This document shows positions 1,547 to 8,215 of a DNA stretch of 10,064 nucleotides, piece after piece. Position 1 is the first letter of the stretch. The number at the start of each line of letters is the position of its first letter. The DNA is from Escherichia phage CBA6. The stretch is taken from sequence record KM389298.1. One strand, 5' to 3'. The position numbers and the translations under genes are program-made. The notes under the pieces were generated by a model that saw only the letters and a list, made by a program, of their open reading frames with translations, was not told the origin of the DNA and made no database searches.

Positions 1547-1572
1547 AAAGCCGAGGCATTAACCTCGGCTTT
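1547..1572 (-). terminator. Rho-independent terminator hairpin, likely bidirectional, downstream of the HU gene
   Basis: Seen in sequence: AAAGCCGAGG-cattaa-CCTCGGCTTT, a 10-bp stem flanked by T-runs on both strands. On the minus strand it is followed by TTCGTTGTT. Confidence 0.55.
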
Positions 1573-1580
1573 CTCTTTTA

Positions 1581-1601
1581 GCCTAACACGCTGTGCTAGG
1601 C
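1581..1601 (-). terminator. Second stem-loop immediately after the HU stop codon, forming a tandem pair with 1547..1572
   Basis: Seen in sequence: GCCTAACAC-gct-GTGCTAGGC. The 9-bp stem is fully paired only in the minus-strand RNA (one G-U wobble); on the plus strand the same position is an A-C mismatch. Confidence 0.35.
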
Positions 1602-1620
1602 ACGACCGCTCTGAATGTGA

Positions 1621-1899
1621 TTACTGGCCGTTGGCGGCAGCTTTCAGACCTTCGCCGACTTTGAATTTAACAACATTTTTCGCTTCGATCTGAATCGCTT
1701 GCCCGTTCAGCGGGTTGCGGCCAGTGCGCGCTTCCTGATGTTTAACTTCAAACGCGCCGAAGCCGACGAATTGGACAGATTGGCCAGCTGCGACTGCAGT
1801 TTTTACGCCGTTGATAAAGGATGCCACGATCTTCTCTGCTTCGCCTTTGGTCATACCCTGAGTCTGGGCGATGTGAGCGATAAAATCAGTACGGTTCAT
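1621..1899 (-). CDS. HU/IHF-family (DNABII) histone-like DNA-binding protein, 92 aa
   Basis: Translation MNRTDFIAHIAQTQGMTKGEAEKIVASFINGVKTAVAAGQSVQFVGFGAFEVKHQEARTGRNPLNGQAIQIEAK... carries the HU signature (GFGxF, RTGRNP arm). Start taken as the internal ATG at 1899..1897, preceded by GGAG; the 12-codon extension in the track has no SD. Confidence 0.85.
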   Translation of the reverse strand: MNRTDFIAHIAQTQGMTKGEAEKIVASFINGVKTAVAAGQSVQFVGFGAFEVKHQEARTGRNPLNGQAIQIEAKNVVKFKVGEGLKAAANGQ

Positions 1900-1982
1900 T
1901 CGGATTACTCCAGTTAGTTGTTTACAATGTTTCACTACAAGAGGACTACAGCTTACCTAACAAATATTATTGAATAAAGCGT

Positions 1983-2774
1983 TTATTTGCCGACGTTCAG
2001 CATTTTACCTGAGCCGGATCCGTCAACGATCAGAGTACATTTTCCACTATTGGCACATGATTGTAATACCATGTTATATTCATGTTGAAGATATTCAGGC
2101 GTCAGCGAAGTGGTCAGTTTCTGGTTCGCTTGGGCTTCTTGCTCGCGAATTTCAACGTTCTTTCTTGCCGTATCCAATCGTTTGTCCGCCATAACATTAT
2201 CACGGATAGACTGCTCAATAGAAGGATCCGTCAGCGCCTTTTTGACCAACACGCGTGTGATTGTGAACATGCCAGGCGCAGCAGTCTCTAATTGTTGCTG
2301 AGTGCGGTCTTTAATCATCTTCTCTAATTCAGCACGTTGGGTGTGAATTGTCATAGAATCAAGAGAAGAAACGGCGTCCATCGAAGAAGATGCTGCAGCA
2401 GTTTTAACTAGATTGAAACCCACCGCTATCGTGCCATCATCGAGTTCGGCGCTCTGGCCAGCAAATTTGGTATGGAACCACGGAACCTTTGCGACATTGG
2501 GTGTGTAATAAACATCCACATCCAAGTCTTCCAGAGTCAGGTTGTCTTTGGCCTTTGGCGTCATTTTAGTCAGACTCACAACGGCTTCTTTGGTCGTGTA
2601 AACATCCACGCTTGAAACAAAGCTGGTGTAGATCCCCGCTGTTACAGGGTTCATGTCTACTTCACCCCATTGGGTGCGAACGCCGACATTACCTTCATCG
2701 ATAACGCCACCACAACCAGAAAGTAGACTTGCAGCCAGAACCATAATTGCACCGAACACCAATTTCTTGAACAT
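1983..2774 (-). CDS. Lipoprotein with SPFH/band-7 (stomatin/prohibitin/HflKC-like) domain
   Basis: N-terminus MFKKLVFGAIMVLAASLLSGC has a signal peptide and lipobox (LSG-C). The body resembles SPFH domains (e.g. ...LEDLDVDVYYTP... and ...RVLVKKALTDPSIEQSIRDNVMADKRLDTARKNVEIREQEAQ...). ATG at 2774..2772 overlaps the upstream stop (TGATG). Confidence 0.6.
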   Translation of the reverse strand: MFKKLVFGAIMVLAASLLSGCGGVIDEGNVGVRTQWGEVDMNPVTAGIYTSFVSSVDVYTTKEAVVSLTKMTPKAKDNLTLEDLDVDVYYTPNVAKVPWFHTKFAGQSAELDDGTIAVGFNLVKTAAASSSMDAVSSLDSMTIHTQRAELEKMIKDRTQQQLETAAPGMFTITRVLVKKALTDPSIEQSIRDNVMADKRLDTARKNVEIREQEAQANQKLTTSLTPEYLQHEYNMVLQSCANSGKCTLIVDGSGSGKMLNVGK

Positions 2775-2983
2775 CAATGTACCCCTTCAAAAATGTAGAT
2801 ATATGCACCCAATGTGAGTGCGGTTATTGTAACCGAAGAAATCAGCAGCAGGAAAGTTACCCTCACCCGTTTGCGCCAACGTTTACTTCGGTAGATTTTA
2901 GTCTCTTTCAAGTATTTGAAAAAGAAAAATAAAATGAATGTTGAAATTACGAATATGAACAGGTAACGAATTAATCCGATCAT
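2774..2983 (-). CDS. Small hydrophobic membrane protein, 69 aa, about two predicted TM helices
   Basis: MIGLIRYLFIFVISTFILFFFFKYLK...VTFLLLISSVTITALTLGAYIYIF has two hydrophobic stretches separated by a basic loop. ATG at 2983..2981 lies one base after the stop of the upstream gene (TAAAATG); its stop overlaps the lipoprotein start. Confidence 0.55.
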   Translation of the reverse strand: MIGLIRYLFIFVISTFILFFFFKYLKETKIYRSKRWRKRVRVTFLLLISSVTITALTLGAYIYIFEGVH

Positions 2984-2984
2984 T

Positions 2985-3167
2985 TTACACCTGCGTTTTC
3001 CACAATCGCTTGATATTGTTGTTGAACTGGAACAAATCATAATCACCCAGAGCATTCTTCAGGCGCTGCGCTTCTTCAAATGTTGGAACCTCAACATGAA
3101 AAGCGATCCCAGGAACCTGGGGAATATGCCAAACGCGAAATTTAAGTTCAAACGGTTTATTCGACAT
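2985..3167 (-). CDS. Hypothetical protein, 60 aa
   Basis: ORF with ATG at 3167..3165 preceded by GGGAGA; overlaps the upstream gene by 11 nt and sits within the coupled gene string. No recognisable motif. Confidence 0.5.
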   Translation of the reverse strand: MSNKPFELKFRVWHIPQVPGIAFHVEVPTFEEAQRLKNALGDYDLFQFNNNIKRLWKTQV

Positions 3168-3444
3168 GGGGTTCTCCCTGAGACAGTATGGTTTTCATCT
3201 GTTCACGCGTGATAATTGTTTCAACAAGATTCTCGTCAATCATCATTTCGTTTAACAGTTCACAACCCAGCACGTGTGGTCGCGCCATATACGGCATGGC
3301 GTTGAGTTTTTCTTCTATGTCAAGAACGCGCTTGACAGTCAGACCCATAGAAGAAAAGGGAACAGGATAAAAGAATGAAATGATCTGATTATCCATCCCG
3401 TTTGAAAATCTCACTAATAATACATCACACCATACACCGGACAT
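3157..3444 (-). CDS. Hypothetical protein, 95 aa
   Basis: Start assigned to ATG 3444..3442, preceded by GGTGGAGGTG and located one base after the stop of the 223-aa gene (TAATATG). The longer 108-aa form in the track would overlap the upstream gene by 38 nt and lacks an SD. Confidence 0.55.
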   Translation of the reverse strand: MSGVWCDVLLVRFSNGMDNQIISFFYPVPFSSMGLTVKRVLDIEEKLNAMPYMARPHVLGCELLNEMMIDENLVETIITREQMKTILSQGEPHVE

Positions 3445-3445
3445 A

Positions 3446-4117
3446 TTACACCTCCACCGAGTGGGATTTAAGTAGTTCATCAATTCCTTTCTGCCCCATG
3501 TAAGAGAACGGGGTACGCTGGTAGAACGCCCACAGGACTAATTGAACGACGGCGCGGGAACGGCTTTCGGAACGCATCTCAAGTCCGCGAAAATGTGGTG
3601 ATTCGGCAGTCCATTGGATCTCTTCACCCAGGTCTTCGTTACAATCCACCGAAATGCGGAATTTATGACACAACGCGTCTACTTCTCCGTAAGCATCAGT
3701 GGAAACCCTGAGTTGTTCTGCATGCGCCCAAGAAGTCGTAACAATCCGTTCGCCCATCACTTTGTCAGAAACAAACCAATCAATCGATTGAGTGAAATCA
3801 TCGAAGTGATCAATACGATAGATAATCCCATGACCTTCCATACATTTCATGGCATGATAACGTGCGTCAATTTCATTATTGTGCATCGCGTTGAAGTCGA
3901 TGTAAACCCGCCTCGCCAACACAACGTCTTCTGGCTTCAAAGAGACCATCGTCGTGTCATTCATCGTGTAATGAAGGATGCCTGTACCACGCCCACAGTC
4001 ATGTTGGCAATACACGTATTTGTCCCCACCAACACGGGCATAAGCAATATAACAAGGTTCTGAGAATCGAAGGTTTCCTTGGTCTGCGCCAAGGATGATA
4101 GGATAAGATTTGTCCAT
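3446..4117 (-). CDS. Hypothetical protein, 223 aa, Cys/His-rich, function unknown
   Basis: Long ORF on the same strand as all neighbours, first gene after the 4140..4160 hairpin. No motif I can assign confidently. Confidence 0.7.
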   Translation of the reverse strand: MDKSYPIILGADQGNLRFSEPCYIAYARVGGDKYVYCQHDCGRGTGILHYTMNDTTMVSLKPEDVVLARRVYIDFNAMHNNEIDARYHAMKCMEGHGIIYRIDHFDDFTQSIDWFVSDKVMGERIVTTSWAHAEQLRVSTDAYGEVDALCHKFRISVDCNEDLGEEIQWTAESPHFRGLEMRSESRSRAVVQLVLWAFYQRTPFSYMGQKGIDELLKSHSVEV

Positions 4118-4130
4118 AATATATATCTCT

Positions 4131-4160
4131 CAAATAAAAGGCGGTTTAATAATAACCGCC
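4131..4160 (-). terminator. Rho-independent terminator between the 269-aa and 223-aa genes
   Basis: Minus-strand RNA: GGCGGTT-attatta-AACCGCC followed by TTTTATTTG. Strong only on the minus strand. Confidence 0.6.
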
Positions 4161-4174
4161 CGATTGTTATTGAA

Positions 4175-4984
4175 TTACTTTATATCACCAACATACATGT
4201 TCAGGGTTTCATCCCATTCTAAACGAACACGAATAGTGCCAGAATCGTTAGGGAAAGACAACTTACTAGACATATGTTTGTTGGCATACGTTCCGCTCTT
4301 GTTTACGGGATAATCGTTCCCTTCACTAATAGCAAATCGTTTAAAATTCCGGCTTACCATCATATTGATGTTCGGCCATGGTAGTTGTTCACGCAGAGTT
4401 TTACACAATATGATCTTTCCGTTGCATCGGAATGACACAAATAAATCATTTGGAGAAGAATAGCGTTGTTCTTGCGGACACAACTGTCGTATTGAAATAA
4501 ATTCGGACTCATCATTATTTTCTACCGGAGGCTTCATGGATTCTTCTCTTCTCTTTTCAACATATTGTTCGAAAGCCTTTTGACCCACAGGTGGGAGCGG
4601 ATTATTGGTGACAGGCATAACGGCTGGTTTGATTTCCGGCTTCTCCGCGGATGATGTGCGAGCGACTCGAAGTTTTTCCTGAGCCTCTAAAATCCTTTCT
4701 TGGCGGGTTTTGGGTTTAGTTTCAACCTTAGAGCTAAAATCGCAGACCGTAACCCAATCACCCTGATCATTGCGCTTGGCAACCAGAGTCAGTTTATAGA
4801 TGATGCCCTGCAGCTTACTTTCGCGCATAGTGTCTGCGAACCAGAAAGCACAACCCTGCTCGAACTTTTCAGCGAAGATGACGCGCCCGTCTTCGTGAAT
4901 CAGAATGACCTTTGCTTTGTTGGGCGCGAACACCTTATTCTTTTCAACGATCGATTCAGCGATCTTTTTAGTAATAATCATCAC
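4175..4984 (-). CDS. Hypothetical protein, about 269 aa, two regions joined by a Pro/Lys/Glu-rich linker
   Basis: Long ORF; SD AAGGAA lies 7 nt before GTG 4984..4982 (ATG at 4981 is an alternative start). The leader GAAAGGAAATACTTC resembles the leaders at 6889..6910 and 7448..7470. No recognisable catalytic motif. Confidence 0.65.
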   Translation of the reverse strand: MMIITKKIAESIVEKNKVFAPNKAKVILIHEDGRVIFAEKFEQGCAFWFADTMRESKLQGIIYKLTLVAKRNDQGDWVTVCDFSSKVETKPKTRQERILEAQEKLRVARTSSAEKPEIKPAVMPVTNNPLPPVGQKAFEQYVEKRREESMKPPVENNDESEFISIRQLCPQEQRYSSPNDLFVSFRCNGKIILCKTLREQLPWPNINMMVSRNFKRFAISEGNDYPVNKSGTYANKHMSSKLSFPNDSGTIRVRLEWDETLNMYVGDIK

Positions 4985-5031: not shown

Positions 5032-5352
5032 TTATCTTTGATTTCCAACGAAATTAGTCGCTATTTCCCGACACATAGTCAGATCTTTGATCGTCTGTTT
5101 GCTATTGTCGGCAGCGGACTCCATCATTGGCAAATCTAAAGCATTCTCTATTTGATCCACGCTGTAGAGATCAAGGCGTTTCAACTCACCTTCATAATCT
5201 GATAAAAGGATGGATGTATCCTTATCGTCGGGGTGAAATTGTTGATAAGTAGACAACCAGGCCGCACATATATTCAATTTGCTGGCCGGAGTTGCCATAA
5301 CTTGGAATGATGCTAACATAGAAAAGAATAACAAGAATATTATGTTTCTCAT
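5032..5352 (-). CDS. Small exported (periplasmic/secreted) protein, 106 aa
   Basis: N-terminus MRNIIFLLFFSMLASFQVMA-TPAS is a typical Sec signal peptide with an AxA-like cleavage site. ATG 5352..5350 preceded by AAGGAG; overlaps the upstream stop as ATGA. Confidence 0.65.
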   Translation of the reverse strand: MRNIIFLLFFSMLASFQVMATPASKLNICAAWLSTYQQFHPDDKDTSILLSDYEGELKRLDLYSVDQIENALDLPMMESAADNSKQTIKDLTMCREIATNFVGNQR

Positions 5353-6038
5353 CTTTCGTTCTCCTTCATCATATTGTCGCAGTCAATCCGTGTTTGCTTG
5401 AGTTCACGCGAAAGCCTTGGGTCGTCTAGATTGACAGACAAATTAGTAGAAAGATCTTTCAATCCGTTCTGAACACGATCCTCATAGTAATAATCATTTT
5501 CTACGAGCCATGCTCTCAGCCCCAACGCACGTGTCCGCCATTCCTTTTTCAAACGTCGATCTGATTCTTGGTCGGCACTATATTCAAACACCTTGATGCA
5601 TTGGTTGCCATCATTGATCAGATCCAAATGTCGACGCCCGATTTGCACACCCTTCTGTAATGCCGGAGAGGGGAGAGAACGGCATTGCCTTACAGTCATA
5701 CGGCCTTGTGTGCCCATACGGCCAGTCATGATGAGATCGCCAGCCTCCATGCCTCCTCGGTTAAATTCATCGTCGTTCATATATCCTTTCAGGTTGAATG
5801 CGCCTTGCTTATATCGATTAAACTCGATACCAGCATTTACAACGGCATCTGTGACATTACCTGTGGCCCAGAGTTCAGAAAAGTTCTCTATGGAACCAGT
5901 TTTGTCTATAGCCACGGCTTGGGAGAACCCAGCACAGTAGGAAAGATCAGACCACAGTTTTTCACCTGTGGAATTCAGCTTGGCGGTGGCAGGAAGTGCC
6001 AGACCAGCCAGCACAACCGCGATGATTAAACGTTTCAT
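5349..6038 (-). CDS. Exported protein with cleavable signal peptide, about 229 aa
   Basis: Start assigned to ATG 6038..6036 (MKRLIIAVVLAGLALPATA-KLN), preceded by AAGGAG at 7-nt spacing. The 22-codon N-terminal extension in the track has no SD. Confidence 0.7.
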   Translation of the reverse strand: MKRLIIAVVLAGLALPATAKLNSTGEKLWSDLSYCAGFSQAVAIDKTGSIENFSELWATGNVTDAVVNAGIEFNRYKQGAFNLKGYMNDDEFNRGGMEAGDLIMTGRMGTQGRMTVRQCRSLPSPALQKGVQIGRRHLDLINDGNQCIKVFEYSADQESDRRLKKEWRTRALGLRAWLVENDYYYEDRVQNGLKDLSTNLSVNLDDPRLSRELKQTRIDCDNMMKENER

Positions 6039-6066
6039 GGTGATTCTCCTTATTTCATTGGATAAA

Positions 6067-7869: not shown

Positions 7870-8196
7870 TTACTTGCGCAGGGCAACCACGTATTCGGCA
7901 AGTTCACCCATGGTCGGGTCGTCGCCTTTACCGCCCAGCCAGCCATCAGAGATCTCGACATTGAACTCTTCTTCTAGTTCCATGACGATTTCGATGGCAT
8001 CAAGATCGTCGCCGCCGAGGTCTTTCTTGGTGCGGAGGCCAGCCAGTTTATCCAGGGCGTCATTCATAATCACTTCCGCGTCGACGATGCCTTTGATGCT
8101 GCTCTTGTCTTCGTCACTGACTTCCAGGTTCAGATTGTCAGTGGCGTACTGAGCCAGGTGACGCATTACTTCAACATAAGTTGGTTTGTTTGACAT
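7870..8196 (-). CDS. Acyl carrier protein (ACP)-like protein with Asp in place of the phosphopantetheine-attachment Ser, about 108 aa
   Basis: Core ...KKDLGGDDLDAIEIVMELEEEFNVEISD... aligns with canonical ACP helix II (E. coli ...[27 protein letters not shown]...), but the conserved DSL Ser is Asp (codon GAT at 8015..8013, checked on the DNA). Start taken as ATG 8196..8194; ATG 8202..8200 is an alternative. Confidence 0.7.
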   Translation of the reverse strand: MSNKPTYVEVMRHLAQYATDNLNLEVSDEDKSSIKGIVDAEVIMNDALDKLAGLRTKKDLGGDDLDAIEIVMELEEEFNVEISDGWLGGKGDDPTMGELAEYVVALRK

Positions 8197-8215
8197 AAGC
8201 ATATCTCAAAATGAA

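Follow-up and report, generated by a model that had tools for sequence, protein, structure and literature searches.

SPFH scaffolds and their small membrane partners

The cages built by SPFH proteins (HflK/C, prohibitin, stomatin, flotillin and erlin) have been resolved only recently, and their effect on the membrane that they enclose is debated. Two kinds of described system lie close to the locus reported here, a five-gene block in a stretch of 10,064 nucleotides (nt) of Escherichia phage CBA6 (sequence record KM389298.1; this whole stretch is referred to as the window), which ends in the genes for a 69-amino-acid (aa) hairpin protein with two transmembrane (TM) segments and a 263-aa SPFH lipoprotein. 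The first is the SPFH-NfeD operon (QmcA-YbbJ, PDB 8z5g; YqiJ-YqiK; Pyrococcus PH1511-PH1510), in which an SPFH gene and the gene of a small membrane protein are co-directional and overlapping or adjacent, as they are in the window, and in which a C-terminal OB-fold domain is the defining feature of the NfeD partner (PMC4208085). The second comprises the cage-forming SPFH proteins on the side of the periplasm or intermembrane space, namely E. coli HflK/C and the prohibitins, including the prokaryotic SPFH4 group (Hinderhofer et al., 2009; PMC2636767).

By analogy, the closest concept for the phage locus appears to be the SPFH-NfeD operon, which pairs an SPFH scaffold with a small membrane protein. 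In the phage loci, too, an adjacent co-directional small membrane gene is conserved across lineages, and the phage SPFH protein matches the fold of QmcA with a Foldseek E-value of 7e-9. The phage hairpin nevertheless lacks an OB-fold, and whereas QmcA faces the cytoplasm (PMC2636767), the phage protein is a predicted exported lipoprotein of opposite orientation. With HflK/C and the prohibitins it shares a complete modelled protomer that includes SPFH1/2, an N-terminal membrane anchor and a predicted orientation away from the cytoplasm, but this anchor would be lipid on a Cys residue instead of a TM helix; in contrast to HflK/C and PHB1/2, the phage system consists of one phage-borne SPFH gene with a dedicated two-TM mini-protein. 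The closest cellular relatives of the phage protein resemble SPFH3/4 in being single-TM, stand-alone proteins without an NfeD partner (PMC2636767), and the long helix of the phage SPFH protein is 11 residues shorter than in these TM-anchored relatives.

Region 1600-4260 of the window is 97-99% identical at the DNA level to more than 100 Vi01-like phages (Kuttervirus, Ackermannviridae; hosts Salmonella and E. coli O157), which identifies the source of the window, as judged by sequence, as a Vi01-like Kuttervirus phage. An SPFH domain has been listed for the Vi01-like gene since 2011 (PMC3220722), GenBank records name the gene 'SPFH domain band 7 family protein' or 'lipoprotein', and a 2026 paper calls it unclear why a phage should carry a gene of this kind (PMC13239085). 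We propose, with a probability of about 0.6, that the five-gene block is an array of accessory cassettes in which only the hairpin and SPFH genes form a conserved functional unit, and that this unit encodes a dispensable, periplasm-facing envelope scaffold complex whose role is most likely protective.

A phage SPFH protein predicted to be exported and lipidated

The last product of the block (1983..2774, minus strand; phrog_200) had been called an SPFH/band-7 lipoprotein in a first-pass annotation made from the DNA letters, and our analysis bears out both parts of that description. Pfam Band_7 (PF01145) matches it with an E-value of 3.2e-13 (50.6 bits, cut-off 23.6), residues 24-216 falling on profile positions 2-176 of 176, and the SPFH fold is found over the full length of the structure predicted by AlphaFold2 (AF2). 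The model (predicted local distance difference test score, pLDDT, 84.5) begins with a signal helix and the SPFH beta/alpha core; two helices follow, one of 40 residues (184-223) and another at 226-242, and short strands make up the C-terminal end. Foldseek aligns it over 230-283 columns with cage protomers of prohibitin, erlin, HflK/C, stomatin and QmcA (E-values of ~7e-13 to ~1e-8, probability 1.00); flotillin and vault are also among the matches, and no single SPFH family stands out. Searches of the PDB by sequence, with the protein and with a profile of its family, returned zero chains, so that only the fold search reached structures there and the family must be considered remote by sequence. 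A profile search of 1.84 billion representative proteins gave no more than 126 clusters with E <= 1e-30, rising to 499 with E <= 1e-10, which marks a small and distinct SPFH subfamily.

The first 21 codons (2712..2774, minus strand) specify a lipoprotein signal peptide of canonical form, MFKKLVFGAIMVLAASLLSG-C21, in which MFKK-LVFGAIMVLAASL-LSGC fits an n-region, an h-region and a lipobox of the form [LVI][ASTVI][GAS]C; the lipobox is LSG-C21, followed by Gly at +2. Among 161 full-length members of the family, a lipobox is present in 129 and a TM anchor in 27. A Cys-x(4-8)-Cys pair near the C-terminus, which alignment and the family census place at Cys240/Cys246 in the window protein (CANSGKC; 2037..2057, minus strand), occurs in 57 of the 129 lipobox-type members as against 2 of the 27 that are TM-anchored, and a disulfide between these residues would agree with an exported, oxidising location. 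At +2 the lipobox members have mainly Gly (58), followed by Thr (22), Ser (13) and Phe (12), with Asp in 2. The window lipoprotein thus lacks the Asp that signals inner-membrane retention at this position; Gly, Phe, Tyr, Trp or Pro at +2 is also reported to be able to retain lipoproteins in the inner membrane (Seydel et al., 1999), which forms no part of our evidence.

These features bear on a reading in which the phage protein mimics HflK/C, its cage capturing or displacing the host FtsH on the periplasmic side and so altering the proteolysis of membrane or phage proteins, in line with the suggestion in the first-pass annotation that the pair could remodel host membrane proteostasis. Its predicted periplasmic orientation is that of HflK/C, the model matches the HflK/C-FtsH structures 9cz2, 7vhq and 7wi3 (E-values of 6e-12 to 2e-8), and some depositors have named the gene 'regulator of protease activity HflC'. 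The fold is nevertheless no nearer to HflK/C than to prohibitin, erlin or stomatin, and the protein has no sequence match in the PDB even by profile. We tried and rejected membership of the HflK/C families: the window protein has no NCBIfam HflC or HflK match, the HflC equivalog model (TIGR01932) giving a null result for it and, with two TM-anchored relatives, reaching 27 bits where 134 are required. The window and all related loci hold one SPFH gene rather than a pair of paralogues equivalent to HflK and HflC, and the named carriers are all large virulent phages with no lysogeny decision to tune. We consider mimicry of HflK/C distinctly unlikely, and specific control of FtsH, which has nothing but the common fold in its favour, seems a less likely function than protection of the envelope.

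A conserved two-TM partner

The gene that precedes the SPFH gene (2774..2983, minus strand; phrog_11680) was characterized by hydrophobicity and position. Its product is the two-TM micro-protein that had been predicted: hydrophobic segments at residues 1-26 and 40-62 enclose a strongly basic loop (net charge +8), and an acidic residue lies near the C-terminus. Comparison of loci supports the pairing of this gene with the SPFH gene that follows it. In Erwinia phage phiEa2809, with 54% SPFH identity, a 64-aa two-TM open reading frame (ORF) overlaps the SPFH start by 1 nt, as in the window; in metagenomic and Burkholderia contigs (45-48% SPFH identity) a 63-66-aa two-TM ORF lies immediately upstream of the SPFH gene, while the other neighbours are unrelated to those of the window (RNA ligase, RNase T, radical SAM). 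A scan of IMG/VR yielded 31 SPFH loci, and the census was taken on the 21 that are non-redundant and lie outside Kuttervirus, with 33-54% SPFH identity. In 19 of these 21 viral loci the end of a two-TM ORF of 49-72 aa falls between -1 and +28 nt ahead of the SPFH start, as against 3 of 426 control ORFs from the same loci (Fisher p ~1e-28, uncorrected for shared ancestry).

The hairpin is absent at two loci, L033 and L039, the latter being the sole census locus with a TM-anchored SPFH protein in place of one with a lipobox. Four further TM-anchored homologues (P0051, P0055, P0058 and P0059) stand alone, with no mini-ORF, among housekeeping genes (thiolase, arginase, pyruvate kinase, PhoU and GST). 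Adjacent to P0059, which is cellular, and on the opposite strand, we observed a gene with a Pfam AcrVA2-like domain (L042, 1268-2413).

The hairpins of different loci share only 10-29% sequence identity; their common architecture comprises a basic residue at positions 4-6, a first TM segment, a net-positive loop (mean +2.3) and a second TM segment, and most have an acidic residue, often within [DE]H, 2-5 positions from the C-terminus. With the hairpin as query, searching by sequence retrieved three near-identical clusters only. An NfeD-like identity, raised in the first-pass annotation, did not hold for this protein: it has zero Pfam matches, and with two TM segments, a loop and fewer than ten other residues it is too small for an OB-fold domain, so that we rejected membership of the NfeD family. 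On these comparisons the robust conserved unit is the hairpin with the SPFH lipoprotein. A literature search of limited reach found no description of the hairpin partner, of the division between lipobox-type phage and TM-anchored cellular proteins, or of natural deletions, and the conserved hairpin partner appears to have been undescribed so far. An intact hairpin ORF is unannotated in several GenBank records, among them those of phiEa2809 (L004, 4804-4998) and phage Guerrero (L003, 4178-4381).

Natural deletions show what becomes of phages without the pair. In Salmonella phage STP07 residues 1-17 of the hairpin are fused in frame to residues ~198-263 of the SPFH protein, which destroys both genes; phages Liang dang 541 and BRM 13314 (MZ156570.1 and ON169963.1) match SPFH residues 198-263 only. 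Since each of these three natural Kuttervirus isolates forms plaques, lytic growth under laboratory conditions does not require the pair. The hybrid ORF of STP07 (L005, 3950-4201) encodes 83 aa and is annotated as hypothetical. Peptides of the orthologous SPFH lipoprotein were seen by mass spectrometry in a purified preparation of phage Sajous1 (Kuttervirus; 3 retrievals; PMC10892097), which indicates that this orthologue is made.

The block is a mosaic of cassettes

The pair closes a block of five minus-strand ORFs, whose positions and lengths agree with those first reported: a 223-aa protein labelled 'ImpD' (3446..4117; phrog_5426), a 95-aa DUF7425 protein (3157..3444; phrog_5397), a 60-aa gp17-like ORF (2985..3167; phrog_1510), the hairpin and the SPFH lipoprotein. 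The junctions between them also stand as described, namely TAAtATG with a 1-nt gap, an 11-nt overlap (ATGTCGAATAA), TAAaATG with a 1-nt gap and TGATG with a 1-nt overlap, and a purine-rich, Shine-Dalgarno-like stretch lies 6-14 nt before each of the five starts. Elsewhere in the window the genes are 37-83 nt apart, save for one 4-nt overlap at 5352/5349, and the tight packing is thus a genuine local property of the block. Directly upstream of its first gene is a terminator-like G+C hairpin (8-pair stem, 5 GC) followed by TTTATTTG (4139..4161, minus strand). The window contains zero matches to the T4-type late promoter TATAAATA and sigma-70-like matches at background level only, and our literature search found no usable transcriptomic study of Ackermannviridae. 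From its layout the block is a tightly packed, real unit that is probably co-transcribed. A search of its products against NCBIfam gave nothing meaningful, and none of six proteins searched against the PADLOC models of anti-phage defence had a match with E <= 0.1.

The first-pass annotation had gone further and proposed that the five genes form a translationally coupled functional module whose products act jointly at fixed stoichiometry. The four successive junctions, short against the 37-83 nt found elsewhere in the window, would suit such a module, as would the tight packing seen in all Kuttervirus relatives and the terminator-like element just before the block. Across genera, however, the five genes are not co-conserved, a finding that the first-pass annotation had itself named as one that would refute the module, and both their combinations and their orders differ. 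In Agtrevirus (ChubbyThor) only the ImpD-like and DUF7425 genes lie between a 302-aa gene and the gene for HU. Taipeivirus (Zahir) has the ImpD-like gene, a DUF7425-sized gene, a gp17-like gene and a LysM gene, and lacks the hairpin, SPFH and HU genes. In phiEa2809 the order is hairpin and SPFH, a homologue of the 269-aa protein that precedes the block in the window, a 157-aa gp17-like gene and HU, with neither the ImpD-like nor the DUF7425 gene; other viral contigs hold, of the block genes, the hairpin and SPFH genes only. A LysM gene is variably present between block genes, the middle gene of the block is a deletion remnant in this genome, the ImpD-like gene exists in two divergent alleles, and the natural deletions described above take out the last two genes only. 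We therefore regard a five-gene functional module as highly improbable, and read the block instead as independent cassettes: ImpD-like with DUF7425, gp17-like, and hairpin with SPFH lipoprotein. Accessory regions of large virulent phages are generally hot spots of cassette gain, loss and replacement, and by these comparisons the variable slot that holds the block, with spanin-like genes on one side and HU and helicase genes on the other, is one of them.

The three proteins upstream of the pair had been described as free of recognisable motifs, which holds for the 223-aa protein alone; it has no Pfam family and no assignment beyond a PHROG of unknown function. Its AF2 model is well formed by its scores (pLDDT 87.5; predicted template modelling score, pTM, 0.85) and has no significant fold match in the PDB. 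We rejected a plasmid origin of 'ImpD', since tblastn against 72,556 plasmids gave zero matches; the name is a mere label. In Kuttervirus the gene has two alleles with ~35% identity while the rest of the block is more than 90% identical, and the window allele is nearer to a Klebsiella-phage version (78%). It is co-located with the DUF7425 gene in Kuttervirus, Taipeivirus and Agtrevirus. The 95-aa product passes the threshold of DUF7425 (PF24200) with 173.9 bits and an E-value of 8.4e-52 over profile positions 1-94 of 95, and the 60-aa product belongs with GP17.

A gp17-like remnant left by a 437-bp deletion

The 60-aa protein matches Pfam GP17 (PF17420), the family of P22 gp17, with an E-value of 6e-24 and 84.4 bits (cut-off 25), but over profile positions 1-47 of 98 only. 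The resemblance to P22 gp17 is thus to the N-terminal half of the family, and the two differ in that the window ORF ends after profile position 47 with 7 unrelated residues. The gp17-like protein of Vi01, by comparison, has 106 aa and scores 174 bits over positions 1-98 of 98. Phages of the Vi01 type have six genes in this slot, the full 106-aa gp17-like gene being followed by a 102-aa LysM-domain gene; comparative maps show no LysM gene in phage 241 and CBA120, and full-length gp17-like copies occupy the equivalent position in Vi01, CBA120 and phage 241.

Alignment with Vi01 and phage 241 reveals that 437 bp are missing from the window between copies of TATCAAGC, a twofold microhomology that marks the junction at 3008..3015 (minus strand). 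The deletion took the C-terminal half of the gp17-like gene together with the whole LysM gene and joined gp17-like codon 53 to the last LysM codons in another frame; the 60-aa ORF consists of gp17-like residues 1-53 and 7 out-of-frame codons from the end of the LysM gene. The TAAAATG junction with the hairpin gene is a by-product of this event. On this alignment the ORF is the deletion remnant of a gp17-like anti-exclusion gene, inactivated or truncated, and the repeat identifies the deletion as microhomology-mediated. A 44-nt junction probe, built so that neither parental flank holds a 28-nt word of it, had zero matches in 50,697 phage records, and the flanks are 569 bp apart in the 15 records listed; the deletion is therefore either confined to this one genome or the product of faulty assembly.

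According to passages in two papers that both cite classical work (PMC6486243, PMC9409062), P22 gp17 is needed to counter exclusion by the Fels-2 prophage, so that the usual label 'superinfection exclusion protein' is the wrong way round. The annotation of this region would accordingly gain from two corrections, the addition of the hairpin gene that several records miss and the relabelling of 'superinfection exclusion' proteins as members of an anti-exclusion family. Where strains harbour Fels-2-like prophages, a truncated gp17-like gene could have a bearing on the host range of Kuttervirus phages used in therapy. Two observations concern the LysM gene. Its presence or absence (L001, 4381-4689, vs L002, 4381) is bounded by near-identical AA(A/T)ATGAT stop/start junctions, so that the cassette could be gained or lost with the stop/start overlap preserved, and in RefSeq records the 102-aa gene is mis-annotated as 'endolysin'.

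A model for the hairpin-SPFH pair

Our model for the pair starts from the signal peptide and lipobox, which suggest that the SPFH protein is exported and lipidated, with its SPFH domains facing the periplasm. The complete cage-type protomer seen in the AF2 model could assemble into a ring or cage on the membrane surface. From its charge distribution the hairpin would sit in the inner membrane with the basic loop in the cytoplasm and the short ends, including the conserved acidic C-terminus, in the periplasm. Having no TM component of its own, the lipid-anchored phage protein may obtain one from the hairpin, which would act as anchor, as retention factor or as a client enclosed by the cage, and would in this way replace the N-terminal TM helix of the single-gene cellular relatives. 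The role that we envisage is protection of the infected cell at the level of the envelope, by exclusion of secondary infection or by stabilization or insulation of the inner membrane. We favour a protective role because the pair is non-essential, is predicted to face the periplasm, and occupies accessory slots in virulent phages whose diderm hosts are unrelated.

Several points weigh against this proposal. The adjacency statistic ignores phylogenetic non-independence, and L033 is a lipobox-type SPFH locus without a hairpin. The hairpin cannot be traced by sequence past close relatives, so that the case for homology between lineages is one of architecture, position and weak motifs. Under the E. 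coli Asp(+2) rule, which governs the inner-membrane retention of lipoproteins (PMC4623201), the window lipoprotein with its Gly at +2 is predicted to be transferred to the outer membrane, apart from a hairpin in the inner membrane.

A location in the outer membrane would suit a different function, in which the lipoprotein excludes superinfecting phages or masks a receptor in the manner of T5 Llp or lambdoid Cor, and the hairpin blocks DNA entry in the manner of Imm. Such a role is common among the non-essential envelope proteins of virulent phages, for which T4 Imm (83 aa) and T5 Llp provide examples (PMC9409062); the dispensability of the pair and its predicted periplasmic location fit it, and it overlaps the protective role that we favour. 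We nevertheless hold it to be rather unlikely as stated here: neither protein resembles the families of Imm, Sp, Llp or Cor, and masking of one particular receptor is hard to reconcile with a cassette that is kept in phages of Salmonella, Erwinia, Burkholderia, Acinetobacter and Synechococcus.

A transfer to the outer membrane as predicted by the Asp(+2) rule would also be compatible with a device for lysis, with the hairpin as a holin- or antiholin-like protein or the pair as a spanin-like bridge between inner and outer membrane. Spanin-annotated genes lie a few genes upstream of the cassette in Kuttervirus and in phiEa2809, and one annotation paper states that holin and spanins were not reliably identifiable in Kuttervirus (PMC6486243). 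The hairpin, however, lacks a charged C-terminal tail, and its basic loop predicts an N-out/C-out arrangement. Two-TM holins have the opposite topology. The hairpin also has almost no periplasmic residues with which to span the envelope, in other phages the cassette adjoins RNA ligase and RNase T genes rather than lysis genes, and neither protein matches a PHROG lysis family. As a two-component spanin in the strict sense the pair was rejected, the hairpin having no periplasmic domain and the lipoprotein being a 263-aa SPFH protein, again with no PHROG lysis match. A function in lysis is thus very unlikely.

A bolder version of our proposal would see in the hairpin and SPFH lipoprotein an unrecognised two-gene system, widespread among large virulent phages that infect diderm bacteria, whose periplasmic cage either fences off the inner membrane against superinfecting phages or membrane-attacking abortive-infection effectors or sequesters a host membrane machine such as FtsH; we advance this tentatively, as something that we would not expect to hold in full. 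If it were true, the pair would represent a new class among the modules with which phages achieve counter-defence or exclusion at the envelope and, at the same time, a minimal and genetically tractable SPFH-partner system. A phage-encoded, lipid-anchored SPFH protein with an obligatory hairpin partner of 55-70 residues would make a very small, dispensable and easily manipulated model, and a role would be given to a gene that is listed as unexplained in phage genome papers (PMC13239085).

Genome setting and neighbouring genes

All genes in the transcribed order are carried by the minus strand. First come the spanin-labelled pair (6041..5349 and 5352..5032) and a 269-aa protein of no assigned function (4984..4175), which lies between that pair and the five-gene block; after the block follow the gene for an HU-type DNA-binding protein (1899..1621; Pfam Bac_DNA_binding, E-value 1e-29) and, downstream of it, a helicase gene that exits the window at its left end. 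Between the HU and helicase genes a perfect palindrome with a 10-bp stem (AAAGCCGAGG…CCTCGGCTTT; 1547..1572) is terminator-like on the plus strand, and folding on the minus-strand transcript is also possible.

The gene at 5032..5352 (minus strand), which relatives annotate as 'Rz-like spanin' or 'o-spanin', overlaps the upstream 'i-spanin' gene (5349..6041, minus strand) by 4 nt. Its product has a signal peptide (…SFQVMA/TP) and no lipobox Cys, and is thus without the lipid anchor expected of an o-spanin.

Further upstream on the minus strand, 7870..8202 encodes a 110-aa product resembling acyl carrier protein (ACP; Pfam PP-binding, E-value 3e-7). Where E. coli ACP reads DLGADSLD, this product has DLGGDDLD, and in a BLASTP alignment with the E. 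coli sequence the phosphopantetheine-accepting Ser is aligned with Asp66. If that alignment is right, canonical modification of the phage 'ACP' may not be possible.

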